A stretch of 49,560 nucleotides of DNA from Candidatus Onthoplasma sp. (GTDB lineage Bacteria > Bacillota > Clostridia > Christensenellales > UBA1242): contig JAZLCR010000034.1 in NCBI GenBank assembly GCA_045614345.1, positions 1 through 49,560 on the forward strand, in the 5' to 3' direction. Below, one piece after another: positions 5,138 through 37,934 of the stretch (its first letter is position 1; each line of letters begins with the position of its first letter). A model generated the notes under the pieces. The model worked only from the letters and a program-made list of their open reading frames with translations, ran no database searches and had not been told where the DNA came from. The translations under genes and the position numbers were made by a program.

Positions 5138-5872
5138 ATGCAAATTGAAGCAACAGGAAAAAGCGTTGAAATCGCAATTCAAAATGGTTTACTTGAATGT
5201 GGAATGAAACGAGAAGATGTTAACGTTAAAGTTGTTGACGAAGGCGGACTTTTCAAGAAAGCTAAAGTTGTTTTAACTTGGGGTGAAACTCAACCGGAAG
5301 TTGAAGAAATCAAAGAAGAAATAGTTGAGACAGTTGAAGAAATCAAAGAAGAAACAGTTGAAACAGAAGAAGTTGTTGAGACTCAACCAGAAGTTAAACA
5401 AAAAAGAATTGTTGATTCAACAAGAATTCAAGAAAAAGGTAAGAACTTTTTATTAGGTCTTGCTAGAATGCTTGATGAAAATGCAACATGTGATGTTGCT
5501 GTTAACGAAAATGAAGTTTCTTTCTCTTTGAAAGGAGAAAAACTTGGAAAACTTATTGGTTTCCACGGAGATAACATTCAATCACTTCAAATTTTATTAA
5601 GCGGACTTAAAATACGTAGTGAAGGAGCTTTAAGATTGTTCCTTGATGTTGATGGATACAAAGCAAGCAGAAATCAAACAATCATCGACCTTGCGAATAA
5701 AACTGCTGAACAAGCAATTAAAATTGAAAGAAATATTCACTTAGATCCAATGAATGCTTATGAAAGAAGAATTGTTCACACAACTCTTCAAGAGCGTGAG
5801 GATGTAACAACTGAATCAACTGGAGAAGGTGAAAAACGTCACGTGGTTGTTAAACCAGTTTACAGAAGATAA
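5138..5872 (+). CDS. jag: Jag/KhpB (EloR) RNA-binding protein
   Basis: Jag_N (GKSVEIAI), KH (LIGFHG) and R3H (MNAYERRIVH) domains. Confidence 0.95.
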   Translation: MQIEATGKSVEIAIQNGLLECGMKREDVNVKVVDEGGLFKKAKVVLTWGETQPEVEEIKEEIVETVEEIKEETVETEEVVETQPEVKQKRIVDSTRIQEKGKNFLLGLARMLDENATCDVAVNENEVSFSLKGEKLGKLIGFHGDNIQSLQILLSGLKIRSEGALRLFLDVDGYKASRNQTIIDLANKTAEQAIKIERNIHLDPMNAYERRIVHTTLQEREDVTTESTGEGEKRHVVVKPVYRR

Positions 5873-5878
5873 AAAATT

Positions 5879-5899
5879 GCCAACTTAGTTGGCTTTTTT
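5879..5899 (+). terminator. Intrinsic terminator after jag
   Basis: GCCAAC-tta-GTTGGC followed by T6. Confidence 0.8.
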
Positions 5900-6082
5900 A
5901 TTTTAAAATTTAAAATTTCTTATGATTTGTTTGACTTTTAAGTTTTCAACTCTTAAAATTATTTTAAGAGTATGAAATTTCATATTCTTTCAAGGTAAAG
6001 AAGTTATAATTTTGGTTGTTTTAACATAAATTAAGATTATAAATTCCTTTATTCAAAAGTTTTAATTAGGGGGAAAGAGTTT

Positions 6083-7033
6083 ATGAAAAAGAAAATATTA
6101 AGTCTTGTTTTAGCATTTTGCATGATTATTCCATGTTCTTTAATGTTTGCAGGATGTGAAAAACCAACATTTGCAACAACATGGACATTCAATGAAACTC
6201 ATCACTGGCATGCCTCAACAAAAAAAGGAAGTGATGAAAAAGCAGATTATGCTGAACACGTTGATTCAAATGAAGATGAAGTTTGTGATGTTTGTTTGCA
6301 CGGAGCGGTTGCTTTGGTTGGAACAACAGCATACGCAAACTTGGAAACAGCAATAACTTCAGCATGTGATGCCTACCTTGAAGCTGTTGAAGTTGCAGGA
6401 AGTGCAGATGGAGTTGCAGATGTTGTTGTTAGTTTGTTTGATAACATTGAATTGGTTGCAAATCCAGATCCACTATATCCAGAAGAAACAAACAGAGGAA
6501 TATATATTACTAATGCGCACATAACATTAAAATTAAATGGTAAAACAATAACTGCAGAAAACTGGGATGGCTTTTCAATATTCTGTGTTGATGGAATGGG
6601 TTCAATACTTACAATTGAAGGCGAAGGAACAATCAATTCAGCTTCTCAAGTAAATGATTATTCAATGGCTGTTTGGGCAAGAAATGGTGGCGAAATTATT
6701 ATCAAAGGTGGAACATTCACAAATGTTGGAGCGAAAGCTTTTGAAGATAATGGAACAACTCCAAACAATAACGAATTAATATATGCAAGCGGTGGTAGCC
6801 AAATTAATATTACTGGTGGAACATTCATTGGAAACCATGAAAATACCACTCATGGAGTAATATATACTTTAAATCAACACGATGAAGGTTATGACACGAT
6901 TCTTGTTAGTGGTGGCAGATTTTACGCATATAATCCATCAGAGGTTGTTGTAGAACCAGAGGTGACAACATATGTTGGAACAGGTTACAAAGCTGTTCAA
7001 GATGGTGATTACTACGTTGTGGTTGCAGAATAG
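6083..7033 (+). CDS. Putative lipoprotein with His/Cys motif and beta-helix-like region
   Basis: Signal peptide with lipobox FAGC; THHWH...H..D..CDVC motif; repeated I.GG.F turns. Confidence 0.75.
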   Translation: MKKKILSLVLAFCMIIPCSLMFAGCEKPTFATTWTFNETHHWHASTKKGSDEKADYAEHVDSNEDEVCDVCLHGAVALVGTTAYANLETAITSACDAYLEAVEVAGSADGVADVVVSLFDNIELVANPDPLYPEETNRGIYITNAHITLKLNGKTITAENWDGFSIFCVDGMGSILTIEGEGTINSASQVNDYSMAVWARNGGEIIIKGGTFTNVGAKAFEDNGTTPNNNELIYASGGSQINITGGTFIGNHENTTHGVIYTLNQHDEGYDTILVSGGRFYAYNPSEVVVEPEVTTYVGTGYKAVQDGDYYVVVAE

Positions 7034-7047
7034 AGTTAATAAAAAAT

Positions 7048-7071
7048 AAAAAGAGCTTTATGCTCTTTTTT
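7048..7071 (+). terminator. Intrinsic terminator
   Basis: AAAAAGAGC-ttat-GCTCTTTTT type stem. Confidence 0.75.
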
Positions 7072-7083
7072 GTTTTGTTAAGA

Positions 7084-7112
7084 TTGACATTTTAATTTGT
7101 TGTTGTTATACT
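7084..7112 (+). promoter_or_regulatory. Near-consensus SigA promoter of lysS-gpsA
   Basis: TTGACA-17 nt-TATACT with extended TG; short leader with AAGGAG RBS. Confidence 0.8.
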
Positions 7113-7142
7113 AAAAGACATAAGCAAAATAAGGAGTTTAAC

Positions 7143-8669
7143 ATGGATAATGTAAATTTAAGTGAATTTGAAATTAAAGTTGAAAAAATTAAAAAACTCG
7201 AATCAATGGGAGAAAAGGCTTACAAAGCAAAATTTCACAAAACTCACGAAATTCACGACCTTGAAAAATATGAATTGGGAACAAAGGTTAGTGTTGCAGG
7301 TCGTATGACTTTTAAGCGTACTTTTGGTAAGCTTATTTTTGCTCGTCTTTATGCTATTGGTGACAATTTTGATTGTGATTTAACAAGTGATATGAGAACA
7401 AGCGTGCAAATTAGTTTATCACTCAATATTGTTGGTGCAGATGCTCTTCAAAAATTTAAAGATTTCTGCGATATTGGTGATTTTGTTGGAGTTAACGGTG
7501 AACTTGTTAGAACTCAAACTGGAGAACTAACTGTTCAAGTTGACACTTTTGAATTGCTTTCAAAAGCTCTTCGTGGACTCCCTGAAAAGTTCCATGGTCT
7601 TGTTGATGTTGATGCTAGATATCGTCAAAGATATTTAGATATCGTTTCAAATGAAAAATCTCGTAAGGCTGTTTGGGTGAGATTTAAAGTTACTCAATTT
7701 ATTCGTGATTTCTATATTAAACACGGATTCTTGGAAGTTGAAACACCAATTCTTCAAAATGCTGTTGGTGGTGCGCTTGCAAAACCTTTCCACACTCATC
7801 ACAATGCTCTTGATCTTGATATGAACTTAAGAATCAGTCCTGAAACATTCTTAAAGCGTGTTATTGCTTGCGGATTTGACAAGGTTTTTGAAATTGCAAA
7901 AGATTTCAGAAATGAAGGTCTTTGCGTTGACAAACTTCAAGAGTTTACAATGCTTGAAAGTTATGCTGCATATTGGGATTTTGAAGATAGCATTAAGTTC
8001 TACACAGAACTTTTCAGAGAAGTTTGTAAATATGTTTTCGGAAAATATGAATTTATGTCAAATGGAAGAATGATTAGCCTTCCAACAGAATTCCCAAGAA
8101 TGGATTATGTTGCAACATTAAATGATATTTTAGGATTTAATGTTCTTGATATAACGGATGCAGATGAATTTAAAAAGCTCGTTTTAGAAAAAGGTTTGTT
8201 GGAAGAATATGAACTTGCAGATCAATTCACTGTTGGTGGAATTATTGATTTGCTTTACAAGAGAAAAATGCGTCCAAACATTGTTGAACCAACGATTTTA
8301 TACAACTATCCTAACGTTGTTCCGCTTGCTCGTTACAACGATGCAGATGATAGATTGATTGAAATGTTCCAACTTGTTATTGATGGACAAGAAATGATTA
8401 AAGGTTATAGCGAGTTGGTTAACCCAATTCAACAAAAACACAATTTTGAAGAACAGGCAAAAGCAAAACAAAGAGGTGATGCTGAAGCCATGGATTACGA
8501 TAAAGAATATATTCTAGCAATGGAACATGGGTTCCCACCAATTTCAGGTATTGGATTTGGAATTGACGTTTTCATTTATCACTTGCTTGATTGTGAAAAT
8601 ATTAGAGATACAATTTTATTCCCAATAACAAAACCATTAGATAATGAAAAGGAAGAAAATCAAGATTAG
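7143..8669 (+). CDS. lysS: Class II lysyl-tRNA synthetase, full length but with substituted ATP-site residues
   Basis: OB-fold (VAGR, GDFVGV.G, TGEL), LPEKFHGL, RYRQRYLD, FLEVETP, FRNEG, YSEL and HGFPP. Motif 3 reads GIDV instead of GIDR. Confidence 0.88.
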   Translation: MDNVNLSEFEIKVEKIKKLESMGEKAYKAKFHKTHEIHDLEKYELGTKVSVAGRMTFKRTFGKLIFARLYAIGDNFDCDLTSDMRTSVQISLSLNIVGADALQKFKDFCDIGDFVGVNGELVRTQTGELTVQVDTFELLSKALRGLPEKFHGLVDVDARYRQRYLDIVSNEKSRKAVWVRFKVTQFIRDFYIKHGFLEVETPILQNAVGGALAKPFHTHHNALDLDMNLRISPETFLKRVIACGFDKVFEIAKDFRNEGLCVDKLQEFTMLESYAAYWDFEDSIKFYTELFREVCKYVFGKYEFMSNGRMISLPTEFPRMDYVATLNDILGFNVLDITDADEFKKLVLEKGLLEEYELADQFTVGGIIDLLYKRKMRPNIVEPTILYNYPNVVPLARYNDADDRLIEMFQLVIDGQEMIKGYSELVNPIQQKHNFEEQAKAKQRGDAEAMDYDKEYILAMEHGFPPISGIGFGIDVFIYHLLDCENIRDTILFPITKPLDNEKEENQD

Positions 8670-9684
8670 TGTAATTGGAACAGGAAGATGGGCTTCAACT
8701 AATATTTGGATAGCAGTTAGAGGTGGTCACACTGTTAAATGTTGGGATAAGTTTGCAACAGACTTTATGCTCAATAAGAAAAATAAACACGTAGACTTAA
8801 GCGATAGTGAAAATGTTATTTGCTGTTGGGATTTGAAAGAAACTTTAGATTATAGCGATATTGTTATTATTTCGATTCTCAGTCAGGAACTAGACAATCT
8901 TATGGATGAAGTTTGCAAAATACCAAATTATCAAAACAAAAAATATTGTTTGGCAATGAAAGGTGTTGAGGCAGAAACGGGAAGAACCCTAAGCGAAATA
9001 ATGATTGCATATGGAGTTAATAAAAACAACATTGCAATTTTGGCAGGTCCTGGTCAACCAGATTCAATCGTTGAAAACAAGAGGATAAACAAAATGGTTG
9101 TATCTTCATATGATTATGGTTTAGCAAAAGAAATAAGCGAAATAATCAAAACAGAAAACTTCAGTTTGTTCCCTTGGCCAGATGTTCAAGGATGTGAATT
9201 ATGTGCTGCTGCTAAAAACGTATATAGTGCGCTTGGCGGAATGTGTGAGGGAGCAGAACAAAAAACTCTTAAAGGTCAAATTATGAGTGTTAGCATGCAT
9301 GAAATGCAAAACTATTTAAAAGGCATGAACTGCAATCCTGAAACAGTCATTCACTTATCACTTTTGGCAGACTATAATGCAACGCTTTATGATCCTGTTA
9401 GTCACAATTTAAATTATGGAATTGAAGTTGTTAAACAAGGAAGTATTAATCCAAATTTGGACTTTAATTCAATTGAAGGAAAGTACGCGGTTAAAGGACT
9501 TTTAAAAAGATTATATTTAAGAAATCAAAATCATAGTGATTTCATGCAGATTCATGTTCCGCTTATGGAAACGTTTGAAAAAATTGTTGATGAAAAAATT
9601 TCTCCATCTCGAATAATTCCAGAAGTTGATGAGGCTATAAACTCATCCTTAAGTGAATGGACAGAAAAAAGTTTTGATTTGTAA
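8644..9684 (+). CDS. gpsA: NAD(P)H-dependent glycerol-3-phosphate dehydrogenase family protein (divergent)
   Basis: Rossmann GTGRWA, MKGVE, GPG, AAKNV (catalytic Lys), D...T, SHN and EG; overlaps lysS by 26 nt. Confidence 0.82.
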   Translation: MKRKKIKISVIGTGRWASTNIWIAVRGGHTVKCWDKFATDFMLNKKNKHVDLSDSENVICCWDLKETLDYSDIVIISILSQELDNLMDEVCKIPNYQNKKYCLAMKGVEAETGRTLSEIMIAYGVNKNNIAILAGPGQPDSIVENKRINKMVVSSYDYGLAKEISEIIKTENFSLFPWPDVQGCELCAAAKNVYSALGGMCEGAEQKTLKGQIMSVSMHEMQNYLKGMNCNPETVIHLSLLADYNATLYDPVSHNLNYGIEVVKQGSINPNLDFNSIEGKYAVKGLLKRLYLRNQNHSDFMQIHVPLMETFEKIVDEKISPSRIIPEVDEAINSSLSEWTEKSFDL

Positions 9685-9685
9685 G

Positions 9686-9713
9686 AAAAGCACGACGTAA
9701 GTCGTGCTTTTTT
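9686..9713. terminator. Bidirectional terminator between gpsA and the sipL-like gene
   Basis: AAAAGCACGAC-gtaa-GTCGTGCTTTTTT between convergent genes. Confidence 0.88.
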
Positions 9714-11222
9714 CTACCTTTTGATAATGATTTTTTCACCACCTTGCATAACCATTGGTAGTTCTTTGTTATATTTATGAATATCCTCTGGAGAAATCTT
9801 AATACGTTTACACAATTCCCATAAGCTTTCATTCGGTTTTGCAATATAAATTTGAATATCGTATTTTTGCATATCTAAAGGTTTGCCAATTTTGAATGAA
9901 TCAACAATTTCATATGATTCATTAACATAAATACTTAAGCGAATAAATAGTGTATATTCAGTTTCAATTATTGTGCCTCTTTTAACTTTAATTTTTGAGT
10001 CCACAACAGAAATAAAGTTATGAACACATTCAAACTCTTCAGCTTGCAATTTTGTGTCGATAACAAAAGGAGATTCTAGTTGTTTGTGCTTAAGTTCCTT
10101 ATTTTCATCAATGTATGTCGCATTAGAAGATATAATACCTTCAACAACAATTGAGTTGTTTTTAACGTAGCAATTGGTTATTTCTGGCACAATATTTAAG
10201 TTTGAAATTATTTCGTCGATTGCAGGTTCACTGGTATTTAATACTGTTTCATTAGAGATTGTTTCGCTAATTGAAAATTCCTCCATCTTTTTTGTGAATT
10301 TTCTTTTTGAAATACTTGTTTCAATGCTGTTTGCAACGCTATAAACATCGTCGACGATGTTAATTGAAACATTTTTTAAAACAACTCCCGACACATAAAT
10401 TTTATTTTTTAATGTTATCACATGAACATTGTTTTCTTTTTCGATTTCAATTTCTTCAAAAGATTTATCAACAACAAAAGATAAATCTAAAATATCATCT
10501 TTTGTTAATCCAGCAATTTCAATGTCTTGTTTTATATTATTTGTTTCATGCAATTCTTTAATTGTTGAATCATTGTCGCTAATGCTTTCAAAAAGAATAG
10601 AAGTTGACAATTTTCCCTCAACAACAGCATATCCATCCTGTGCTGAAACTTTTTCTGGAGAAAAATAAGAGTTTAAGCATAATATCTTATCAACAGAAGA
10701 TTTTGATTCAAGATTTGTAACATAAAAGAAATTACTATTGATAGAACTTGAAACATAGTTGGTTGAAATTTCACATTTTTTGGTGATTAAAAGATCAGAA
10801 CTAATGAGATTATTATTCAATGACAAATTCAGATAGGCAATTGGTGAGATATTAACATCACAGTTGATTTTCAAAATGCCATCAGTTGATAAAACATTAT
10901 GTGAGATGTAGGCATCTGAAATGTTTAAATAAGTTTCACTATTTATTAGGTTATCAATATATGTTTCTGTGAAGTTCAACGAATCGGAAATTGTGTTGGT
11001 TATGTTATCAGTATCTAGGAATAAAACTTTAACTCCAATTTTGCCTGAGAAAATTGCTTTTCCGTTACTACATTCAACTTTTTGGTCAAACAGATAGGCT
11101 TTAACGTCCAACAAAGTTTTAATGCTGGTGTTGCTATCTATAGGGATATTGATTGTTGAATTAAAATTAAATTTATTTAAATTTTTAGTGTAAGTGATTT
11201 TTGAAATTGATTTATCTTCCAT
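9714..11222 (-). CDS. SPOCS (DUF3794) repeat + C-terminal LysM spore coat morphogenetic protein, SipL-like
   Basis: Three beta-rich repeats of the type 'G.....EG.I....LY' and a C-terminal LysM-like YIAKPNESLWELCKR...N; GGAGG RBS. Confidence 0.82.
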   Translation of the reverse strand: MEDKSISKITYTKNLNKFNFNSTINIPIDSNTSIKTLLDVKAYLFDQKVECSNGKAIFSGKIGVKVLFLDTDNITNTISDSLNFTETYIDNLINSETYLNISDAYISHNVLSTDGILKINCDVNISPIAYLNLSLNNNLISSDLLITKKCEISTNYVSSSINSNFFYVTNLESKSSVDKILCLNSYFSPEKVSAQDGYAVVEGKLSTSILFESISDNDSTIKELHETNNIKQDIEIAGLTKDDILDLSFVVDKSFEEIEIEKENNVHVITLKNKIYVSGVVLKNVSINIVDDVYSVANSIETSISKRKFTKKMEEFSISETISNETVLNTSEPAIDEIISNLNIVPEITNCYVKNNSIVVEGIISSNATYIDENKELKHKQLESPFVIDTKLQAEEFECVHNFISVVDSKIKVKRGTIIETEYTLFIRLSIYVNESYEIVDSFKIGKPLDMQKYDIQIYIAKPNESLWELCKRIKISPEDIHKYNKELPMVMQGGEKIIIKR

Positions 11223-20596: not shown

Positions 20597-23500
20597 TTGA
20601 AGGGGAAATTTTTAAAATTAAAAACAACAATAATTGGGTTGCTTGTTTTGGTTGCAGGATTTGGTTTTGCGTTCGGTTCAAATAGAACACAAACGCAAAT
20701 GATTGAAACATATGCTGCAGCACCGATTAAAAAAGTTGGCGACGATGAATATAGTGCGTTATTTGGAGATGATAGAGGTAGCGCTATTTTTTCGGTTGAA
20801 AAAGTTGCTGTGAGCACAAAGGATGTGGATAATGACAACATCCCAGATGGTCTAACCGAAGGGTACGAAACATTCTACTCAAACTATAACCATAAAACTG
20901 TGAGTGATGATTATTACACATTCCGTCACATTCCAAATGGTTTAAAAACAAAAACCGTTGTTGAAGATGGGCAGTTTGTTAAGATGGATAACAAGGTTGA
21001 AAGTGGTAATGTTTACAAAACATCAGACACTCAAGAAGCAATTATGATTTCTTTTGGTTCTTATGTTTATCATCCTAAAACCGATAGCTCAGATGAAAGA
21101 GTTGAGATTGCAGACGAGAACGGAACAATTCATTCTCAGATAACAAGTTTGGAAGTTGTTATAAAAAAGAACAATGTTGAACAACAAATCCCTTCAATTA
21201 GAAATATTAGACCTGCTGCTGGTGGGCTTTACTTTGATTTTGCATATTTAATCACTCAAGATGTTAATAACACAAACGAAGGTTATTATCAAATTTATTT
21301 AGTGTTTAATATTGCTGGTGTTAAGCATACTGCAAATTTCTCATTCTATATTGTAAACAATAGTTCATACATTCAGTCGATTGGACCAAATTATGGTTAC
21401 AATGCAAATCCAACACTGGGTTGGGTTGAAAATGGTTCTGAATTTTCGAAGGTTAACACAAGTTATGAAGTTGATAATTACGTGAGATACAAAATAGGAG
21501 CTCATGGAATTTCAGATTCAGCAATTTCTTATCCAACACTTACATATGACTACACAAGATATAAATTAAGTTACATTAAAACATCTAACCAAAAAACAAC
21601 AACATATGATTTAAGTGTTAGATACGATGAGAAATTAAACAATCAAGAAGCATATTTAGTTATTAGCAAAACGGAACAAGGAATAACAACATCAACTGAA
21701 TATAGTCTTGATGATTATGATTCAACAAATTCAATAAATTTAGTTACAATAATGTTCACTGAGCCAGGTGCATATTCTGTTGATTATAATTTTCTTTACA
21801 AAGGCTTCAATTCAGCAAACGCTCCTAAAATGGATTTTGAAGTTCAAGATATCAAATTTTCAATTTTTGGAATGTCTTTGCAATATTCAAAAGCTGGCTA
21901 CAAAAGTGCGGAGATGCAATGTTTTGAAATTGCATCAACTCCAAATAACAATATTGACTTAATTGTTCCAAATGGTTACATGGAAGGTGATGATATTTCA
22001 AATAAAAAAGATCAATCAGTTGGGTTTATTTATTCATTGGTTGATAGTGAAGAAAGAGAAGGAAATGTTGTTTTAGCAAATAGCGTTAATTCAATGGTTA
22101 ACTCTGATCTTAAAAATGATTCACAAAAATATGGTGCAGGATCTGGGGTTGATGCTTTAACATACCTTGTTGGAAATTCAACAGACCTAAGCAAGAGTTC
22201 AGATGTTAATTTAACAACAATATTAAACAAGATTCCATTTGCTAAAACAAATCAAGGGTCATTATGGCTTATTGGCAATGATAAATTTACAACAAATAGT
22301 TTCTATTTCTATTCTTCAACAGGTTTTAAAAATGTTAGCGACTTGTTCACAGAGAAAGAGGTTGGAGGCATTCCAACAACGGTTTCTGCAAAAAGGGCTT
22401 ACACAAACACAACGTCATTTAATGCCAAAGGTTATTATTTAGTGTTTTTGGAAGTTAAGCCAAACGGAATTAATGATGCAGATAGCAATATGTTCTGGCA
22501 AGTTTTCGCGTTCCAATACACTTCTGATTCAACAAACATCACAATTGAAGCAATAAACGATAATGGAACTGAAAACACATCAGACGACACTTATGAAGAT
22601 GTTGCGGGAAGATACACAAATAAAAATGTTAGAATTTCATGGAAAAAACCAGGAATATTTGACAGGAATGTTAATGCTGAATATTACAGCGTTGTAAATC
22701 AAAACCTTACAAAAGACAATCTTCTTCTAACAGGCAAAAAATATTTCAATATTTCAGAAAGTGAAATTGGAGGAGAAATATACCAAATTGCATATTTGGG
22801 ATCAGAAGTTGCGGGTGGAACATTTGTTAAATACTTAATATCACTAAAAAATGAGGGTGATAGTGTTACATACAAAATGTTCACAATTGACAGACAAAAC
22901 ATTTCTGGAATTAAAGCGTATTTAGTTCAACAAGTGAATTCAGGAAATTCAATTTTCTATTCATATGCAACAAATGTTAATAATTCTAAAATCGAAATTA
23001 CAAACTCTGTAACAGATGGTTTGGCAGCATTAACTTGGAACAACAAAGCAAGTGGATCTGAAATTTTTGCAAGCTATAGTTACACACCATTCACAATCAA
23101 CAGTGCAGATCCAGAAACTATCGTTGGCAATGGTGGAAAACAATGGATAACAACAAATTATCAATTTGGTCAAACAATTTCTGGTGCGGATTTAGTTAGA
23201 CCTGAAAATAGTTATAGTGTTCCAAGTGATAGTATTTTATTTAACCAAGGTGTTTATATTATTAAATTATGGGATAGTGCTGGAAACCAAGCATACTATG
23301 CTTTTGTTATTGATAGAACAAATGGATATTTTAATATTAACTATAAAGACAATGAAGGAACAAACAAAAGTACATATTTAACAAATTCATTTGCAATATA
23401 TGGAGACAATGTTACCTATTCAGTTGGTGATTACAAGGCGTTTAAACTATTCTCTTCATATGATTCGATTGATGAAAAAGTTAAAGAGTTAATTCAAAAA

Positions 23501-26500
23501 GCGTCAGAAGGAAATCTTCATGAATTTGAAAACTATTACACAGGCGCAGACAATAACATTTATTCGCTTTCTAAGATTTTCCAAAAACATGGTTCTGATT
23601 ATTATTTAACAATTCAAAACAAATCAGTTCTCGCATATGAAAACTCAAACAATATAGCTGAAGATTTGGGGTTGAAAAATACTTTGAGATATAACGTGGA
23701 GGATGGTTCATCTTATTACACATGCAAATTATATCTTTCAGGAGAAAATCATATTAATTCTCAAACACAAACTCAAGACAAGTCATATGTTAAAATTGAA
23801 ATTAACAAAGACAATGCCAGAGGATATGTTTATTACCAAAATGATTATGACATATCTGCAATTCCAACAGATGGAAGCGATGTTTCTGTTGGTTCAAGAG
23901 GTATGACATATAAATTAAAAACAGGCAGTGACGACAGCGAAAAAGATATCAATGGTCTTATGGGCGCGCATGCAACAAGCGCAAATCACGTAATGTTTAT
24001 TTGGAATATGGGAACTGGACCTTTTGAAGTTGAAAAAGTTACTTATAAATACTATTCATTAAATCTTAACAATTTCGATTCATCAGGTAAATATTATTTC
24101 TATAGCAGCGAAAAAGGTCAAGGACAAGAGTATGTTGTTTACAATAAGGGTGATGAAGGAACATACTTTAAAAAGCTTGGCGGAACAGGAATGGCTATAA
24201 TCGACTTTGATAATTCTTCAACAAGTAAAGCTGGTTTGTATGTTGTTACCAGAACATATGTGGGTGATCAAAGCGCATTAGGTGCCGACGTTAAAGAAAA
24301 GAACTATTATTTCATTGTTGATAGAAATGGAATTATCAACACAACAGCTGGAATTGGTGATCAAATTAAAATTTGTTTAATGGAAGACGAAACCGAATTT
24401 GACACATTCTCAGGATATGGATATATTCCTAAAACTCTCATTTATCAAAACGATGGCATTAATGAAAAATATAATGTTTATCTTGAAACAACAAAATTGC
24501 CAGCAACCATCAGCATCCCAACAGGCAAATATGTTAAAGGTATGGAAAATTCTTCAGGTTATCAAGCAGGAAGATTAAAAGTTGCTGTATACTTCCGTGA
24601 TTTAGACAATCAATTGCCTTTATCAACAAATTTGCAAGGTGGAAATGTAAAGATTTACGACTCCACTATTTATCCGAATTCAGAAATTTATGACAGCAAG
24701 AATAACACGTTCAACATTGATATTTATGATTATTTATCAAAAATTAATTCAACATTGAGAGACAGATTAACCATAAGTGATGATCATGGAAACTGGTTAT
24801 TCTTATCTGGTGATTATGTTATAAGAATTAGTGACAATGTTGAGAACGGAAGAACAGATAGAGATGAACCACACAACAACGAAAAGTTTATTGGTCTATC
24901 GATCAAAACAAAGGATCAAGAAGGTCCAAAAGTTGACACGTTCACAGGATTTGAAACGGATCAAACAATATTAATTAATCCTGTTTATGATTCTGGTTAT
25001 TATCATGCAACAGTTAGTCAAGAATTCTTAGAAGTTCGTTTGCCAAATTATAGCTTAACAGAAACTCAAAATGCTCAAGTTGACAAAGACTATTTGATTG
25101 TTACGCAGTTTGATGATGGCAAGGAAACACCATATATCAATCATCCTTACACAGCAATTAACGGAATTCGTTTAGATCGAGATAGCGAATACGTTACCTT
25201 GAATGATGATGGATCAATAAGTGTTTGGTTGGACACTAAATTAGATGTTAACTCATTAGATAAATCATTAAGTTACACAATAAAAATCAGATATAAGCTT
25301 AATAACTTTAAGTCACATGAACTTATATCAAAAACAGAAGAAGAGCTTATCAAATATTTAGGTTGCTATGTTTACTATACAGCATCAGGAGAGGCGATTT
25401 ATTATTATGAAAATAATTATAAAATAACAATTGACCGTCTTGCTCCAACGAAAAATATTGAAGAGTTAAATAAATCAGATGTTTTGGTTAATGAATATAA
25501 TGAAGAGTTTGAAACAGAATATATGTTTGAAAATTCATTCGATCAAAGACCAGGAGCACAAATTTATTTCACAAGACAATATGCAAAATATTATCAATAT
25601 GCAAAGAATAATCAAAAATATGAAAATGATTACATCTATGCATACAGAGTGTTTGAAACCACAGACTTTTATAAAGAAGATGTTGCTATAATTTATGTTA
25701 AAGAAATTGGTGGTGTAGAAGAACTTAAAACTTATAGTTTAACATTGCCATTCTTTTCAACAAATGGTTATTCACAAAATTATCCAGACTTATCAAAGTA
25801 TGGCGAATTGATGTTTGAAAATCGCAACCTGATGGCAAACACATATTATGAAATTATTGAACAAGATGCTGCAGGAAATGTTGCTCAATATGTTATTCAT
25901 TACAATCCAGGATCAGATGAAATTCATCTTCCAGTTAATGTTAAAACAACTTCACTTGAAAACAAAGAAGTTGACATCGCATTCGAGACAAATGAGGTTG
26001 ACTATAACATCTTTGAAATTTCTTTAACTGAAGATTCAACAAGACTCAATGATAATTTCTTCAAAATTGTTGTAAGAAGAACAGGTGCTCAAGAAAGTCC
26101 TTATCAAATCCTAACAAAATCAGGAACAAACTTTGAAAAATTAAATCAACAGATTGTTAAGTATATCACTCAAACATCAGGGTTTGGAAACTATGAAATT
26201 CTAATAAAATCAAGAACCAAAGAAAAATTATTTACGTTTAACTATTGCAACAGTGCGGCTGAAATTGTAATTGACATTAAGAATCTCGTTGTAAAAGAAG
26301 GCGAACAATTTAAAATTGTTTTATCAAATGCAAAAGCTCAAGATAAAGATCACACGATGTGGTATTTTGCAGAAACAATTAGAGTTACAACTTCACTAGA
26401 AACTTCAATATATCATGGAAAAATGCACAATGGAGAAGTAAAATATTATAACGAGTTAAATCCAAATATTTATGTTTCTGAAATTAAGTGCTTGCCTGAA

Positions 26501-28822
26501 ACAACCTACATTCTAAGCATGGTGGTTTTGAATAGCACATCATCTTACAGATTTAACACGGCTGATAAAAAGTTTACAATCATAACATATGGTAAAGAAG
26601 GAACATATTTCGAAACTGTTCATGAAGGGAAACTTGTTTCATACACTTACGACTTCGTTGAATTTAAATTTGATAAAACGATTTATATAGGTGAAATTTT
26701 AATTAAAAGAGGAAACTCTTACATTTCATCGGGCATAACACCTGTTGTTGATGGAGAGTATAAAAAGTTTGTTTTAGAACCTATCTTTGATGAGATTACA
26801 GGCGAAGGTGGCTTGTTGGAGTATAAAGTTATCTTAAATCCTGTTGATGGTGAAAGTGATGAAATTTATTTCTTCACAATTGACACAAGATTAAGTTCAG
26901 TTGTAATAAGAGATTATTCTAGCGGAACACAAAAGAAGATTTATTATCATAACAATAAGCATCATATTGACGTTGACCAAGTTGTTGATCAACCAACATT
27001 TGGAACAACTAGTTTGAAATGGACAAATGTTGAAGAAAATGAATATTTTGATTATGAATATAATTTGTATGAACTTTTAAAAGATGGAACATACAGAACG
27101 TCAAATCTTACAGGTCAAAATAGTTTGGTGATTTCAACTCCAGAGGACAGTTCGGGTATTTATAAATTTGAAGTTAAGGTTTACACTAAAGATGGAAAAT
27201 ATGCAGGAAATAGAATTTACCTCTTTGAAGTTCAACCTGATAATAATCAAGTTTATTTTGTAAGAGATGAGTTAGGAAACACAATAACTTCAGCAAATTC
27301 GAAATTTAGAGTTGAATTGCTTGAAGGTGCAATGATTTCAGAAATAACAACAAAATTTGCAAATATCAAAACAGATTTAAATTTACCACTTTATGTTACA
27401 AACCAAAATCTTAACATTGGACCGATTGATGAAAATGTTGCAATAAGCAAATGTGAAACATCTGAAGGTCTTTATAGTAGTGTTTATGAATTTGTTGTTT
27501 ATCAAGTGAAAAAGGAAAATGTTTTCGAGATCTATTTTGGTGTTTTGAAATTCCACACAAATTTTGCTGAAAAAACAGAACTTATCAAGGACTTTGGAAT
27601 TATTGTTAATGGATCAGTTCAATTGAAACAAGAAACAACGTTTACTGTTGTTGAAAAAGCCGACTCGGAAATTGAAATTAAGGCAACAAGAATTAATCCT
27701 ATTCCGGCATACACTGAAGATTACTTGTTCGAGAAAAATGAATTATGGCTTGAAGTTAGATATAAAGATCAAATAGTGTCTAATGAAAAATTCAAAACAA
27801 CATACTCAATTGAAGGTAATGGAAACTATTCATTCTTGTTCAAGGATACCGCAGGCAACATTCATGAATTTAAAGAAGATGTTGAAAAATGTGATATTTA
27901 TGTTTTAAGAGAAGTTGTCACACTTATTAATGGTCAATCAGCAATAGATAATGCATATTACAACGGAGTGGTTAGTCTTACAATTAACGAAAGTTATAAA
28001 TATATAACAGGAAGTATTAAAGTTGAAGCAAAGCGAAATGGTGAAACATACAAACCATCAGGATACAATCCATATACTTTCTCTCACAGTGGAACATATA
28101 GAGTAAAACTATATGCAAAATATCAGGGTCTAGATGAAGAACTCACAAAGATTATTACATTCACAATCATAAATGAAAAAGAAGCAAGAAAATCAATCGA
28201 TTTAACAGGTTTGGGTGGATGTAAAATCACGAGTGTTAAAAATCAATTTGGTGATGATGTTACAAACAAATTCCTTAACATAATGTTATTAAAAGGTAGC
28301 ATGAATATCACTTATGAAGATATTATGGAGAATGCTGAAGACTTAAATGTTACAAGCGGAAAACAAACATTCTCAATCAAGTATTCAATGAGTGATGGAA
28401 TTTATCCAACAAGAGAAATTGACTTAAGCTTCACGTTGAATAATGAGGATGTTTCAATTTCATGTTCTCTTCAAAAAGGAGAAACAACAACAAAAGGATT
28501 CACAATCTATTTCAATGCCGCAGTTATTTATGAAAAGGTGGGAGAATCGTATATCTATATTAATGATAGGTTGGTTGCCCATGTTAACGAACTTTCAGCA
28601 AATGCCGAACAACAAGTTTCAACAACTTATGATGAATTTGGTGAAGGTGGCTATTATGTAAAACTCATGAGCACATCTGGCGTTTTGTTGGATTGTTATA
28701 AAGTTACAATCAAAGAGCCACTTAATGCGTCTGCAATAATAATTATTATTGTTGTTGTTGCCGTTGTTGCAACAGTTGTAATATCTGTAATTGTTTTAAG
28801 AAGAAAAATGAGGATCAGATAA
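20597..28822 (+). CDS. Giant (2741 aa) membrane-anchored surface protein with Ig-like repeats
   Basis: TTG start behind AAGGGG; signal peptide; recurrent D.AGN and F.ID[RT] strands; C-terminal TM followed by RRKMRIR. Confidence 0.85.
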   Translation: MKGKFLKLKTTIIGLLVLVAGFGFAFGSNRTQTQMIETYAAAPIKKVGDDEYSALFGDDRGSAIFSVEKVAVSTKDVDNDNIPDGLTEGYETFYSNYNHKTVSDDYYTFRHIPNGLKTKTVVEDGQFVKMDNKVESGNVYKTSDTQEAIMISFGSYVYHPKTDSSDERVEIADENGTIHSQITSLEVVIKKNNVEQQIPSIRNIRPAAGGLYFDFAYLITQDVNNTNEGYYQIYLVFNIAGVKHTANFSFYIVNNSSYIQSIGPNYGYNANPTLGWVENGSEFSKVNTSYEVDNYVRYKIGAHGISDSAISYPTLTYDYTRYKLSYIKTSNQKTTTYDLSVRYDEKLNNQEAYLVISKTEQGITTSTEYSLDDYDSTNSINLVTIMFTEPGAYSVDYNFLYKGFNSANAPKMDFEVQDIKFSIFGMSLQYSKAGYKSAEMQCFEIASTPNNNIDLIVPNGYMEGDDISNKKDQSVGFIYSLVDSEEREGNVVLANSVNSMVNSDLKNDSQKYGAGSGVDALTYLVGNSTDLSKSSDVNLTTILNKIPFAKTNQGSLWLIGNDKFTTNSFYFYSSTGFKNVSDLFTEKEVGGIPTTVSAKRAYTNTTSFNAKGYYLVFLEVKPNGINDADSNMFWQVFAFQYTSDSTNITIEAINDNGTENTSDDTYEDVAGRYTNKNVRISWKKPGIFDRNVNAEYYSVVNQNLTKDNLLLTGKKYFNISESEIGGEIYQIAYLGSEVAGGTFVKYLISLKNEGDSVTYKMFTIDRQNISGIKAYLVQQVNSGNSIFYSYATNVNNSKIEITNSVTDGLAALTWNNKASGSEIFASYSYTPFTINSADPETIVGNGGKQWITTNYQFGQTISGADLVRPENSYSVPSDSILFNQGVYIIKLWDSAGNQAYYAFVIDRTNGYFNINYKDNEGTNKSTYLTNSFAIYGDNVTYSVGDYKAFKLFSSYDSIDEKVKELIQKASEGNLHEFENYYTGADNNIYSLSKIFQKHGSDYYLTIQNKSVLAYENSNNIAEDLGLKNTLRYNVEDGSSYYTCKLYLSGENHINSQTQTQDKSYVKIEINKDNARGYVYYQNDYDISAIPTDGSDVSVGSRGMTYKLKTGSDDSEKDINGLMGAHATSANHVMFIWNMGTGPFEVEKVTYKYYSLNLNNFDSSGKYYFYSSEKGQGQEYVVYNKGDEGTYFKKLGGTGMAIIDFDNSSTSKAGLYVVTRTYVGDQSALGADVKEKNYYFIVDRNGIINTTAGIGDQIKICLMEDETEFDTFSGYGYIPKTLIYQNDGINEKYNVYLETTKLPATISIPTGKYVKGMENSSGYQAGRLKVAVYFRDLDNQLPLSTNLQGGNVKIYDSTIYPNSEIYDSKNNTFNIDIYDYLSKINSTLRDRLTISDDHGNWLFLSGDYVIRISDNVENGRTDRDEPHNNEKFIGLSIKTKDQEGPKVDTFTGFETDQTILINPVYDSGYYHATVSQEFLEVRLPNYSLTETQNAQVDKDYLIVTQFDDGKETPYINHPYTAINGIRLDRDSEYVTLNDDGSISVWLDTKLDVNSLDKSLSYTIKIRYKLNNFKSHELISKTEEELIKYLGCYVYYTASGEAIYYYENNYKITIDRLAPTKNIEELNKSDVLVNEYNEEFETEYMFENSFDQRPGAQIYFTRQYAKYYQYAKNNQKYENDYIYAYRVFETTDFYKEDVAIIYVKEIGGVEELKTYSLTLPFFSTNGYSQNYPDLSKYGELMFENRNLMANTYYEIIEQDAAGNVAQYVIHYNPGSDEIHLPVNVKTTSLENKEVDIAFETNEVDYNIFEISLTEDSTRLNDNFFKIVVRRTGAQESPYQILTKSGTNFEKLNQQIVKYITQTSGFGNYEILIKSRTKEKLFTFNYCNSAAEIVIDIKNLVVKEGEQFKIVLSNAKAQDKDHTMWYFAETIRVTTSLETSIYHGKMHNGEVKYYNELNPNIYVSEIKCLPETTYILSMVVLNSTSSYRFNTADKKFTIITYGKEGTYFETVHEGKLVSYTYDFVEFKFDKTIYIGEILIKRGNSYISSGITPVVDGEYKKFVLEPIFDEITGEGGLLEYKVILNPVDGESDEIYFFTIDTRLSSVVIRDYSSGTQKKIYYHNNKHHIDVDQVVDQPTFGTTSLKWTNVEENEYFDYEYNLYELLKDGTYRTSNLTGQNSLVISTPEDSSGIYKFEVKVYTKDGKYAGNRIYLFEVQPDNNQVYFVRDELGNTITSANSKFRVELLEGAMISEITTKFANIKTDLNLPLYVTNQNLNIGPIDENVAISKCETSEGLYSSVYEFVVYQVKKENVFEIYFGVLKFHTNFAEKTELIKDFGIIVNGSVQLKQETTFTVVEKADSEIEIKATRINPIPAYTEDYLFEKNELWLEVRYKDQIVSNEKFKTTYSIEGNGNYSFLFKDTAGNIHEFKEDVEKCDIYVLREVVTLINGQSAIDNAYYNGVVSLTINESYKYITGSIKVEAKRNGETYKPSGYNPYTFSHSGTYRVKLYAKYQGLDEELTKIITFTIINEKEARKSIDLTGLGGCKITSVKNQFGDDVTNKFLNIMLLKGSMNITYEDIMENAEDLNVTSGKQTFSIKYSMSDGIYPTREIDLSFTLNNEDVSISCSLQKGETTTKGFTIYFNAAVIYEKVGESYIYINDRLVAHVNELSANAEQQVSTTYDEFGEGGYYVKLMSTSGVLLDCYKVTIKEPLNASAIIIIIVVVAVVATVVISVIVLRRKMRIR

Positions 28823-36630: not shown

Positions 36631-36886
36631 AAACGATGAAGATGTGTTCAGTAGTAATTTTGCTTTCATAAAGGGAGAGTGGTCGGCGATTGAGAGCCAC
36701 TTATGTTCAGGTGATTTTGCGAATTTCAGCATTGGAGTTGCTCTCGGTAAACTTTAAAATTTTTAAAGGTTAAGAGTTGCCAGACAAAACTGTGAAAATG
36801 TTAATGAGGCAAATATTTTATATTTGCGAAATTAGGTGGTTATTAACGAAAGGTTCTCTCGTCCTATGTTTAGGGCGAGTTTTTTA
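36631..36886 (+). ncRNA. T-box riboswitch (Phe)
   Basis: Stem I with GATGAAG, AGTAG, AGGGAG, TGAGA and GAA-T-TTC (Phe specifier at 36725-36727); T-box AATTAGGTGGT; terminator CTCGTCCTA-tgtt-TAGGGCGAG-T6 before pheS. Confidence 0.9.
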
Positions 36887-36902
36887 TTTGAAAGGAGAAA
36901 TT

Positions 36903-37934
36903 ATGCAAGATAAAATTAATGAAATTTTAAATTACACAAAGGAAAAGTTGGAAACTATTAATTCAAGCGCGGAATGTCAAAATTTGCGTGTTGAAATTTT
37001 AGGTAAAAGCGGAAAAATTACAGGACTTTTCCGTTTTATGAAAGAAGTGCCAAACGAAGAAAAGGGTAAAGTTGGAGCAATGCTCAATAACGCAAAAACC
37101 GAAGCGGAAAATTTAATTTCTGCAAAAGAAGTATTTTTGGAGCAAGCAGAGTTAGAAAAAGAAATCAATTCAGCTGAAAAAATTGATATAACTTTACCAT
37201 GTGAGCACAAGGTTGGAAGTCTTCACCCAAGAACAATTATTCAAAAACAAATTGAAGATGTTTTCGTTTCTATGGGTTTTGTTGTTGAAGATGGTAACGA
37301 AGTTGAAACTGAGTATAATAACTTCACAGCGGTTAACGTTCCTGAAAATCACCCAGCACGTGACATGCAAGACACATTCTGGTTAGATAACGGACAAGTT
37401 TTGAAAACTCAAACTTCTGCTGCACAAAATAAAATTTTAAGAAAATATGCTCCACCAATCAGAGCAATTTTCCCAGGAAGATGCTTTAGAAATGAAGATA
37501 TTGACGCAAGCCATGAAAACACATTCTTCCAACTTGAAGGTGTTATTGTAGACATTGATGTTTCAGTTGGAAATCTTATTTACTTTATGAAAGAAATGCT
37601 AAGTAAGATATTTAAAAAAGATGTTGAAGTTCGTCTTCGTCCTGGTTTCTTCCCATTCACAGAACCAAGTTTTGAAATGGACGTTCGTTGCCCGTTCTGT
37701 GATGGAAAGGGTTGCCCAACTTGTAAGAACGGTGGTTGGATTGAACTCTGTCCATGTGGAATGATTCACCCTAATGTTTTAAGAAACGGTGGTGTTGATC
37801 CTGAAAAATATTCTGGCTGTGCTTTCGGTTTAGGGCTTGATAGAATGGTAATGCTAAGTTTAGGGCTTAAAGATATTCGTGATTTAAACAGCGGAAACCT
37901 TAAACTGCTTAATCAGTTTAAGTTGGATGTTTAA
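36903..37934 (+). CDS. pheS: Phenylalanyl-tRNA synthetase alpha subunit
   Basis: GSLHP, HPARDMQDTF, TQTS, FFQLEG, FPFTEPS and FGLGLDR motifs; start ATG 36903 behind AAGGAG. Confidence 0.98.
   Translation: MQDKINEILNYTKEKLETINSSAECQNLRVEILGKSGKITGLFRFMKEVPNEEKGKVGAMLNNAKTEAENLISAKEVFLEQAELEKEINSAEKIDITLPCEHKVGSLHPRTIIQKQIEDVFVSMGFVVEDGNEVETEYNNFTAVNVPENHPARDMQDTFWLDNGQVLKTQTSAAQNKILRKYAPPIRAIFPGRCFRNEDIDASHENTFFQLEGVIVDIDVSVGNLIYFMKEMLSKIFKKDVEVRLRPGFFPFTEPSFEMDVRCPFCDGKGCPTCKNGGWIELCPCGMIHPNVLRNGGVDPEKYSGCAFGLGLDRMVMLSLGLKDIRDLNSGNLKLLNQFKLDV

Follow-up and report, generated by a model that had tools for sequence, protein, structure and literature searches.

The ATP site of class II lysyl-tRNA synthetases (LysRS) has been described for several enzymes. 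In LysU, Arg480 is reported to contact the ATP gamma-phosphate by ionic interaction (PMC8251883), while in human LysRS the conserved motif-3 arginine, Arg553, is described as becoming ordered upon nucleotide binding, in an ATP pocket that includes Arg323, Glu325, His331 and Glu494, with magnesium held on Glu487 and Glu494 (PMC9840234). Likewise, Arg330 and His338 are named as important ATP-recognition residues of PfLysRS (PMC7672456). Here we describe lysS, the LysRS gene on a stretch of 49,560 nucleotides (contig JAZLCR010000034.1, assembly GCA_045614345.1; hereafter "the window", meaning the whole of that stretch) from Candidatus Onthoplasma sp. The product of this gene carries valine at the motif-3 arginine position (Val476) and lysine at the position of the motif-2 histidine (Lys264), and the published roles of the LysU, human and PfLysRS residues place positions 264 and 476 in one shared triphosphate/adenine pocket. 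We refer to lysine at 264 combined with valine or isoleucine at 476 as the K/V form. On the evidence below, the gene probably encodes a working housekeeping LysRS whose ATP site has been rewired with a compensated shift of charge, lies in an ordinary operon with a gpsA-like gene, and represents the native form of its genus.

The closest described relatives are the bacterial LysS/LysU enzymes (TIGR00499, PF00152 plus PF01336). The window protein has in common with them the two-domain architecture, the fold and most class II LysRS hallmarks, namely the motif-2 arginine and glutamate, the adenine-stacking phenylalanine, the Glu/Tyr/Glu of the lysine pocket and a magnesium-binding glutamate. It differs from them, as do its K/V relatives, in having Val/Ile for Arg480 and Lys for His270, along with a set of clade-specific residues. 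Two other known systems use LysRS-derived proteins outside translation: LysX, a LysRS-MprF fusion, and EpmA/PoxA, a paralogue of the catalytic domain. Neither the window protein nor its genome has the MprF domain of LysX, and the window LysRS, unlike EpmA, retains the anticodon-binding domain. Unrelated forms of LysRS are also known to displace one another (PMC7373986; PMC1475646).

The lysS product and the K/V lineage

The original prediction, made from the letters of the window, read motif 3 as GIGFGIDVF and found a lysine codon at the motif-2 histidine position. Direct reading of the DNA gave the same result: positions 7905-7949 translate as F R N E G L C V D K L Q E F T and positions 8544-8573 as S G I G F G I D V F. 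Because the frame is open through to the stop codon at 8667-8669, Lys264 and Val476 are substitutions and not the result of a frameshift, in agreement with the original prediction. A phmmer alignment to E. coli LysU (1e1o) pairs K264 with His270, V476 with Arg480, R256 with Arg262, E258 with Glu264 and F268 with Phe274. Assembly error at the key codons was ruled out, as all 22 K/V genes of the genus, from separate assemblies, carry both changes, with the lysine encoded by AAA in 18 and AAG in 4 and position 476 by GTA (6), GTG (6), GTT (4), ATA (4) or ATT (2). Contigs from a gut-metagenome run, possibly the window's own source, are identical over 8063-8578, including the GTT codon.

By domain content the product matches PF00152 (228.9 bits) and PF01336 (27.8 bits; cut-off 27), and it passes two NCBIfam LysRS models narrowly (NF001756, 494.1 versus 468; TIGR00499, 437.9 versus 427.6). 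The LysX model NF002821 (393.6 bits versus a cut-off of 742) and the EpmA model TIGR00462 (163.8 versus 286.9) are not passed, and the oligonucleotide-binding (OB) domain is present, unlike in EpmA. An AlphaFold2 model (predicted local distance difference test score 92.1, predicted template-modelling score 0.88) places Val476 near the start of helix 474-481, with confidence dipping to 75-80 at residues 141-160. All of the top 50 Foldseek matches are LysRS, and full-length template-modelling scores to solved LysRS structures are 0.84-0.89. The lysine-pocket and catalytic residues E234, E272, Y274, E417, Y422 and E424 are retained. Two hallmarks are missing: the arginine of motif 3 (G-x-G-x-G-x-D/E-R) and the ATP-pocket histidine of the motif-2 loop. 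As the test for the motif-3 arginine failed, we file the window LysRS as a variant lineage of the LysS family and not as a typical member.

We looked for another LysRS that might serve the cell. In the source genome (829,740 bases in 50 contigs, 86% complete), a single class II LysRS match exceeds the cut-off; three weaker matches are adjacent AspRS/AsnRS genes on another contig. Neither class I LysRS (lysK; best 22.4 bits versus a cut-off of 147.55) nor EpmA was found in this 86%-complete genome, and both tRNA-Lys(CTT) and tRNA-Lys(TTT) are present among its 30 tRNAs. The second lysS, lysK or gpsA for which the original prediction proposed a search did not turn up; there is a single LysRS and a single GpsA homologue. 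Similarly, each of the 22 K/V genomes of the genus, some of them 95-98% complete, has one LysRS, and class I LysRS was found in 0 of 21 of them (within a 61-genome search that G077 stood outside). LysRS is also single in six K/V genomes of genera g35 and g50, bringing the K/V genomes checked for another LysRS to 28 in three genera. The same genome's AspRS, AsnRS, HisRS and PheS all keep the motif-3 arginine, so its loss is specific to LysRS.

The K/V form is one of several in the genus. Of its 64 species genomes, of 0.7-1.5 Mb, 22 have a K/V LysRS at least 81% identical to that of the window, with Lys264 and either Val (16) or Ile (6) at 476. Another 32 have an Arg type (R) that is 60-65% identical to the window LysRS, and six have a second Arg type (R2) at ~50% identity, both with His and Arg at the two positions. 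Three genomes have class I lysK only (402-406 bits) without a class II LysRS, and in one, 81% complete, neither class was found. Among 355 aligned LysRS, 74 combine Lys with Val (56) or Ile (18), 280 combine His with Arg, none is mixed and one is a fragment; the two groups are defined by the trait itself, and the informative point is the lack of intermediates.

To place the lineage more broadly, we searched 1.84 billion proteins (50%-identity representatives) by HMMER with the catalytic domain, and the best match was only 47% identical. Consistent with the near-invariance that the original prediction had attributed to the motif-3 arginine, the best 150 representatives have His at column 264 in 150 of 150 and Arg at column 476 in 149 of 150, the lone non-Arg sequence being a fragment of 337 amino acids. 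A word-indexed search of 5.8 billion clusters yielded, among the 120 matches listed, 46 K/V clusters (36 K+V and 10 K+I) and 74 with His and Arg. When the divergent K/V member P0195 served as the query, these 46 clusters came back again; all 54 proteins new to this search carried His and Arg, no K/V lineage beyond the 46 clusters was found from P0195, and a gap separated K/V proteins (at least 62% identity) from the rest (at most 57%). A profile search of genome contigs with the K/V alignment returned at least one likely K/V locus (85% identity) and otherwise mostly the general LysRS pattern. Public records name the K/V proteins simply lysine--tRNA ligase, from metagenome-assembled genomes (MAGs) of uncultured Clostridia or Clostridiales.

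Apart from the two substitutions, the catalytic machinery of the K/V proteins is constant. R256, E258, F268, E272, Y274, E417, Y422, E424, G469, G471, G473 and D475 are retained in 74 of 74 sequences, which, together with the PF01336 match, bears out the earlier view that the lysine pocket and the anticodon-binding OB-fold are intact. The signature residues of the clade are C/S/T261, S273, S283, F464, I470 and H480, the last being His in 70 of 74 K/V sequences, where LysRS outside the clade have Leu, Met, Ile or Phe. Gln410 (8370-8372), aligned to the first magnesium-binding glutamate (LysU Glu414), is Gln in all 74 as well; we do not count it in the signature, because Gln also stands there in 211 of the 280 canonical relatives. 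Pairwise ratios of nonsynonymous to synonymous divergence (dN/dS) in the catalytic domain are 0.004-0.050 between K/V genes and 0.019-0.032 between Arg-type genes, and synonymous codon turnover is seen at both 264 and 476. The catalytic domain of K/V LysRS is thus under strong purifying selection. A delimited LysRS lineage without the class-defining motif-3 arginine is new; the open-access literature that we searched yielded no description of a natural LysRS lacking it.

Two further observations concern relatives of this LysRS. Fusions occur in P0196, P0006, P0019, P0024, P0002, P0015 and P0260, with HD, NUDIX, B3/4, DUF2000 or tRNA_bind domains at the C or N terminus; the HD-fused proteins comprise one K/V member (P0196) and two canonical ones (P0006 and P0019), and those with HD or NUDIX domains might be relevant to the turnover of diadenosine tetraphosphate (Ap4A). 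Also among the matches listed are LysRS 44-50% identical to that of the window (L177-L184) from gut MAGs labelled Candidatus Enterousia/Alphaproteobacteria and Bacilli, which hints that this LysRS group has spread laterally across small-genome gut bacteria of different phyla.

Exchange of LysRS forms in the genus and family

We compared the window LysRS with the Arg-type proteins of its nearest species in sliding windows. Identity is 80-98% from residue 1 to ~160, falls to 52% from about residue 161 and reaches 20-30% in residues 280-360. The same contrast holds for all pairs in the genus: K/V and Arg-type proteins are 80.5% identical in the N-domain (residues 1-160) and 50.6% in the catalytic domain (residues 170-500), compared with 82.1% and 87.7% among K/V pairs and 80.7% and 84.9% among Arg-type pairs. 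The break coincides with the inter-domain linker. Protein windows put the breakpoint at about residues 160-180; nucleotide-level mapping between sister pairs is too coarse at this divergence.

Trees of the two domains (64 sequences; all trees here are quick IQ-TREE searches with SH-like approximate likelihood ratio test [SH-aLRT] support only) disagree in the same manner. In the N-domain tree, the Arg-type sequences of the genus nest within an otherwise all-K/V clade (SH-aLRT 95 and 97). In the catalytic-domain tree, they group instead with canonical LysRS of another genus of the family (G421 of g68, P0206 and P0209; SH-aLRT 100; 66-70% identity), apart from a K/V clade with SH-aLRT 100. The K/V proteins of g35 (two of two genomes) and of the deeper lineages P0186-P0196 diverge in step in both domains, and four sampled g50 genomes hold the whole K/V gene, while other g50 genomes have a canonical LysRS. 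This in-step divergence suggests that the K/V gene is a coherent native lineage and that the Arg type of the genus came about when a canonical catalytic domain was brought in; the same divergence also ruled out that K/V reflects recent acceleration confined to the genus. By sequence comparison, the canonical-Arg LysRS of the sister species is a probable chimera of a native N-domain and a foreign canonical catalytic domain.

The two forms also appear to have been swapped since among species of the genus. In an RpoB tree built from 54 genomes of the genus, the 18 with K/V LysRS require 10 changes, at least 7 of them forced by well-supported branches, and constraining the K/V genomes to one group lowers the log-likelihood by 1689 units (approximately unbiased [AU] test, p = 7e-96). 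Close sister groups of differing type include G014/G001, G073/G041, G046/G021, {G061, G007, G066}/{G008, G006} and {G000, G068, G077}/{G043, G019}; identities of HisRS and PheS match RpoB on the window's nearest kin. Mis-binned contigs were ruled out as the cause of the scatter, as the contrast (~80% versus ~50%) sits inside one gene. In ~30 genomes the HisRS gene lies 6-7 kb from lysS on one contig, and HisRS does not divide the K/V genomes from those of the Arg type, which also argues against mis-binning. The original prediction held that finding GIDR in close relatives would count against it. This is literally true of some sister species, but it reflects a real polymorphism, apparently through replacement of the catalytic domain, and not an error in the window.

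Domain-level exchange of the catalytic modules of an essential synthetase among close relatives is new. The familiar displacement between class I and class II LysRS is seen in this family too, where whole genera are of one kind; what differs is that sub-gene swaps, of the catalytic domain only, also occur within one genus, and that one of the forms exchanged lacks the motif-3 arginine. Among 401 family genomes sampled, all ~1 Mb, 257 have class II LysRS (16 of them K/V) and 128 have class I, and no K/V genome is among the 128. Within the genus, the class I genes lie at G048:C16:16021-17562, G067:C10:109741-111282 (locus L057, 4042-5598) and G075:C142:1188-2723, that of G067 being immediately followed by an Asp/Asn-type class II synthetase gene, and on the RpoB tree the three genomes fall among those with the R2 type of class II LysRS. 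PheS alpha (pheS, window 36777-37934) likewise falls into two deep types in the genus, 67-100% and 44-48% identical to that of the window. Each PheS type accompanies K/V LysRS in some genomes and the Arg type in others, so essential synthetases in general seem prone to allele replacement in the genus.

Readings of the altered ATP site

We propose that, on the stem of the K/V lineage, the motif-3 arginine gave way to Val/Ile and the motif-2 histidine to Lys, with the remaining lysine, ATP/magnesium and adenylate machinery kept. The positive charge that holds the ATP triphosphate would thereby now sit on Lys264 in the motif-2 loop instead of in motif 3, and the aliphatic residue at 476 may continue to pack on the adenine opposite Phe268 as a hydrophobic lid. 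The clade-specific neighbours His480, Phe464, Ile470, Cys/Ser261 and Ser273 could re-fit the pocket, such that the rewired enzyme would still form lysyl-adenylate and charge tRNA-Lys. Its hosts appear to be spore-forming gut Clostridia with reduced genomes of ~1 Mb. In the genus, a canonical catalytic domain would have recombined onto the native N-domain at the inter-domain linker, after which the two forms were presumably exchanged. Co-transcription of lysS with the sole gpsA homologue, a putative source of glycerol-3-phosphate for PlsY, would reflect operon packing in a compact genome and not functional coupling.

Reduced genomes can lose "invariant" synthetase residues, an example being the loss of editing sites in Mycoplasma aminoacyl-tRNA synthetases, with mistranslation. 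The K/V lineage resembles these degenerate enzymes in having lost such a residue in a small genome. It differs in that a residue of the synthetic site has been replaced, with a fixed partner change, followed by strong purifying selection.

Taken together, the sole-LysRS status, the purifying selection and the co-occurrence of the two changes (74/280/0) support an atypical housekeeping LysRS with compensating changes, the first of the two interpretations that the original prediction had offered. Several points weigh against it. That the K/V enzyme is active we infer solely from essentiality, conservation and the missing alternative, and the supposed proximity of Lys264 to the gamma-phosphate site follows, by analogy, published descriptions of the histidine there. 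The K/V pair arose once, so its perfect co-occurrence amounts to one event and not to replicated evidence of compensation. The K/V stem, at 0.70, is also ~3 times longer than neighbouring stems (0.19-0.25), which fits a period of relaxed constraint too. Canonical catalytic domains have repeatedly supplanted the K/V one, and class I has supplanted class II in the family, which could mark the K/V enzyme as inferior or only conditionally adequate. For the window genome alone, a second LysRS could lie on the missing DNA, although the more complete relatives argue otherwise.

One rival explanation concerns why the K/V form exists and is compatible with a housekeeping enzyme: the K/V catalytic domain may primarily be an inhibitor-insensitive LysRS, conferring resistance or immunity, whose reshaped ATP/adenylate pocket excludes a natural inhibitor from the gut community. 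We regard this as unlikely, though several observations favor it. The LysRS forms are patchy and run against the species tree, the exchange is precise to the domain, and class I stands in place of class II in 3 of the 61 genomes searched from the genus and 128 of the 401 sampled from the family. The positions altered in K/V LysRS lie along the pocket taken up by ATP-competitive LysRS inhibitors; for PfLysRS, His338 and Arg559 are described as contacts of one such ATP-site compound (PMC7672456). Laterally spread, resistant second alleles are reviewed for IleRS and SerRS (PMC9437257). As with the mupirocin-resistant IleRS2 and albomycin-resistant SerRS2 of that review, the K/V form is a deeply divergent allele of an essential synthetase at odds with the species tree; those, however, are usually second copies tied to a known antibiotic, whereas K/V LysRS is present in one copy per genome. 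Moreover, no inhibitor has been identified, drug-resistant variants of LysRS are absent from the table in the same review (PMC9437257), the lysS locus has no linked gene for biosynthesis or immunity, and PheS and gpsA show a similar deep dimorphism and incongruence in the genus, such that allele exchange may be a general property of these genomes. An extended version, in which LysRS is an arms-race target throughout this family of gut Clostridia, with K/V as a resistance allele kept as a trans-species polymorphism and moved by domain-precise recombination and class I as a second escape route, seems improbable to the same degree. The K/V site may be no more than a product of drift in small genomes that was then compensated, or it may be adaptive, for instance by making the enzyme insensitive to an inhibitor.

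A change in chemistry, by which the rewired site alters nucleotide use through a weaker grip on the gamma-phosphate or favors side-synthesis of Ap4A while tRNA charging is retained, is in our view quite doubtful. The lost arginine is described as a gamma-phosphate ligand (PMC8251883), LysRS, in a statement about LysU, as a main Ap4A producer (PMC9437257), and the HD/NUDIX phosphohydrolase fusions among relatives, including the K/V member P0196, hint at a link to nucleotide polyphosphates. Yet HD fusions also occur on canonical Arg-type LysRS (P0006 and P0019), the proposed chemistry is pure inference, and the residues for adenine (F268 and E258), the alpha-phosphate (R256) and magnesium (E417) are invariant. 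We give hardly any credence to the remaining possibility, a dead or repurposed LysRS paralogue, either alone or in a LysX-like lysS-gpsA module that passes lysine to a glycerophosphate or lipid acceptor, along the lines raised by the original prediction, with the true LysRS elsewhere or unrecognised. A residue regarded as invariant is lost, the gene overlaps a gpsA-like gene by 26 nucleotides under one promoter and terminator, and its NCBIfam scores barely exceed the LysRS cut-offs. Against this, no other LysRS was found in the 28 K/V genomes (27 of them searched for class I as well as class II), and the protein keeps a full anticodon-binding domain along with every residue for lysine and the adenylate, at dN/dS of at most 0.05. 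The gpsA-like gene adjoins lysS in 19 of 22 K/V and 20 of 32 Arg-type genomes of the genus, in none of the six R2 genomes and in none of the six K/V genomes of g35 and g50; of the three K/V misses in the genus, two are at contig ends and the third genome has no detected gpsA. The neighbor is, moreover, a sole copy needed for PlsY, the LysX model score falls far short, and the MprF-type domain PF09924 was not found in the 86%-complete genome. Thus, of the linkage expected across relatives, R->V/I and H->K are always paired, but adjacency to gpsA is independent of the K/V form.

The likely housekeeping reading has several implications. The motif-3 arginine is among the few residues that define class II aminoacyl-tRNA synthetases, and a single-copy LysRS across at least three genera does without it. 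The lineage therefore offers a ready-made experiment on rebuilding a class II ATP site, in which sister species that join the same N-domain to a K/V or a canonical catalytic domain are natural matched controls. Domain-wise exchange of an essential synthetase also bears on the use of synthetases as phylogenetic markers, and the lineage is relevant to annotation pipelines and to the design of LysRS inhibitors that target the ATP site.

The gpsA-like neighbor and the surrounding window

The gene downstream of lysS encodes a divergent homologue of GpsA. The overlap reported by the original prediction is present, 26 nucleotides at 8644-8669, and hinges on an upstream in-frame ATG at 8644; where the window has Ile6 (ATC, 8659-8661), the closest alleles in relatives have Met. 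The product matches PF01210 (52.2 bits) and PF07479 (78.8 bits), both over cut-off, and aligns end to end with the solved GpsA structures 1z82 and 3k96, with the Gly-rich NAD loop kept. The K-G, K-N and D..T motifs are retained in 36 of 36 aligned alleles; we take K-N and D..T to be the catalytic Lys-Asn and Asp..Thr, and S-R-N the phosphate-binding segment, of glycerol-3-phosphate dehydrogenase. The protein differs from typical GpsA in that 14 NCBIfam GpsA models match it below cut-off (best NF000942, 126.4 versus 257), and in the S-R-N segment, where Arg is replaced by His in 11 alleles (S-H-N in the window) and by Lys in 24 of the other 25.

Divergence between alleles within the genus is also extreme. 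They are 33-89% identical to that of the window and incongruent with LysRS type: for example, an Arg-type genome carries a 76% allele, and a 90%-identical K/V LysRS adjoins a 38% allele. Such incongruence, together with adjacency to both LysRS types, points to genus-level synteny and not to a functional module. Of the 64 genus genomes, 58 have one GpsA-family gene each, and the search found none in the remaining six. In the source genome, plsY is present (134.6 bits, just under the cut-off of 137.2) and glycerol kinase (glpK) was not found at 86% completeness; with a sole GpsA homologue, the simplest role is housekeeping supply of glycerol-3-phosphate. A more canonical gpsA at another locus, G070:C3:90771-91196 (PF07479 172.7 bits, compared with 62-131 in others), suggests another allele replacement.

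The promoter, ribosome-binding site and two terminator-like hairpins listed in the table frame lysS and the gpsA-like gene as a two-gene unit. The original prediction had given the pair its own promoter and terminator; the promoter match and the flanking hairpins fit this, but the total of promoter-like sites in the region scanned (5800-10000) equals the shuffle expectation (18 versus 18.0 +/- 4.4). No T-box or L-box leader precedes lysS among Rfam matches at gathering score in the window, and the leader is only ~30 nucleotides; the Rfam matches consist of three tRNA genes (1861-1945, 2819-2897 and 2904-2988).

Table. Features of the lysS locus, in coordinates of the window
Feature	Position	Strand	Remarks
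Terminator-like hairpin closing the upstream variable lipoprotein-like gene	7048..7070	+	9 pairs, then T-run
Sigma-70-like promoter, TTGACA-17-TATACT, extended -10 TG	7084..7112	+	11/12, best of 18 sites in the region scanned; a consensus match only
Ribosome-binding site, AAGGAG	7131..7136	+	6 nucleotides 5' of ATG; read directly
lysS, class II lysyl-tRNA synthetase, K/V type	7143..8669	+	508 amino acids; sole LysRS found in genome
N-terminal anticodon-binding OB-fold domain, residues 1-160	7143..7622	+	Tracks species tree; ~80% identity with canonical-Arg alleles of the genus
Catalytic domain, residues 170-500, K/V clade	7650..8642	+	~50% identical to canonical-Arg catalytic domains of sister species
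AAA, Lys264, motif-2 His position (LysU His270)	7932..7934	+	DNA read directly; phmmer alignment
GTT, Val476, motif-3 Arg position (LysU Arg480)	8568..8570	+	DNA read directly; phmmer alignment
CAC, His480	8580..8582	+	One helical turn past V476; K/V-specific; presumed role
gpsA-like, divergent NAD(P)H-dependent glycerol-3-phosphate dehydrogenase homologue	8644..9684	+	346 amino acids; only one in genome
Terminator-like hairpin after the gpsA-like stop	9684..9713	+	13 pairs (5 G-C), T-run; hairpin scan

Upstream of lysS, the gene at 6083-7033 encodes a 316-amino-acid product with a lipoprotein-like signal (Cys past a hydrophobic N terminus) and without a Pfam or NCBIfam match. It is hypervariable: even the closest species, G068, G077 and G019, share little or no similarity with it at the DNA level. 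The end of rpoB occurs on two contigs of the window's assembly (G000:C25:29208-32429 and G000:C41:3873-4658), with 100% identity between the copies across residues 882-1074, which probably reflects contig ends that overlap in the assembly. As a whole, the window resembles the origin-proximal region of spore-forming Clostridia, with rnpA, yidC, jag, spo0A, hisS, pheST, spoIIR, sleB/ypeB and gerA-type genes. It also includes two giant open reading frames, remarkable for a genome of ~0.9 Mb, at 20597-28822 (+ strand, 2741 amino acids) and 44152-48723 (- strand, 1523 amino acids), in which no Pfam family is matched at E <= 1e-5.

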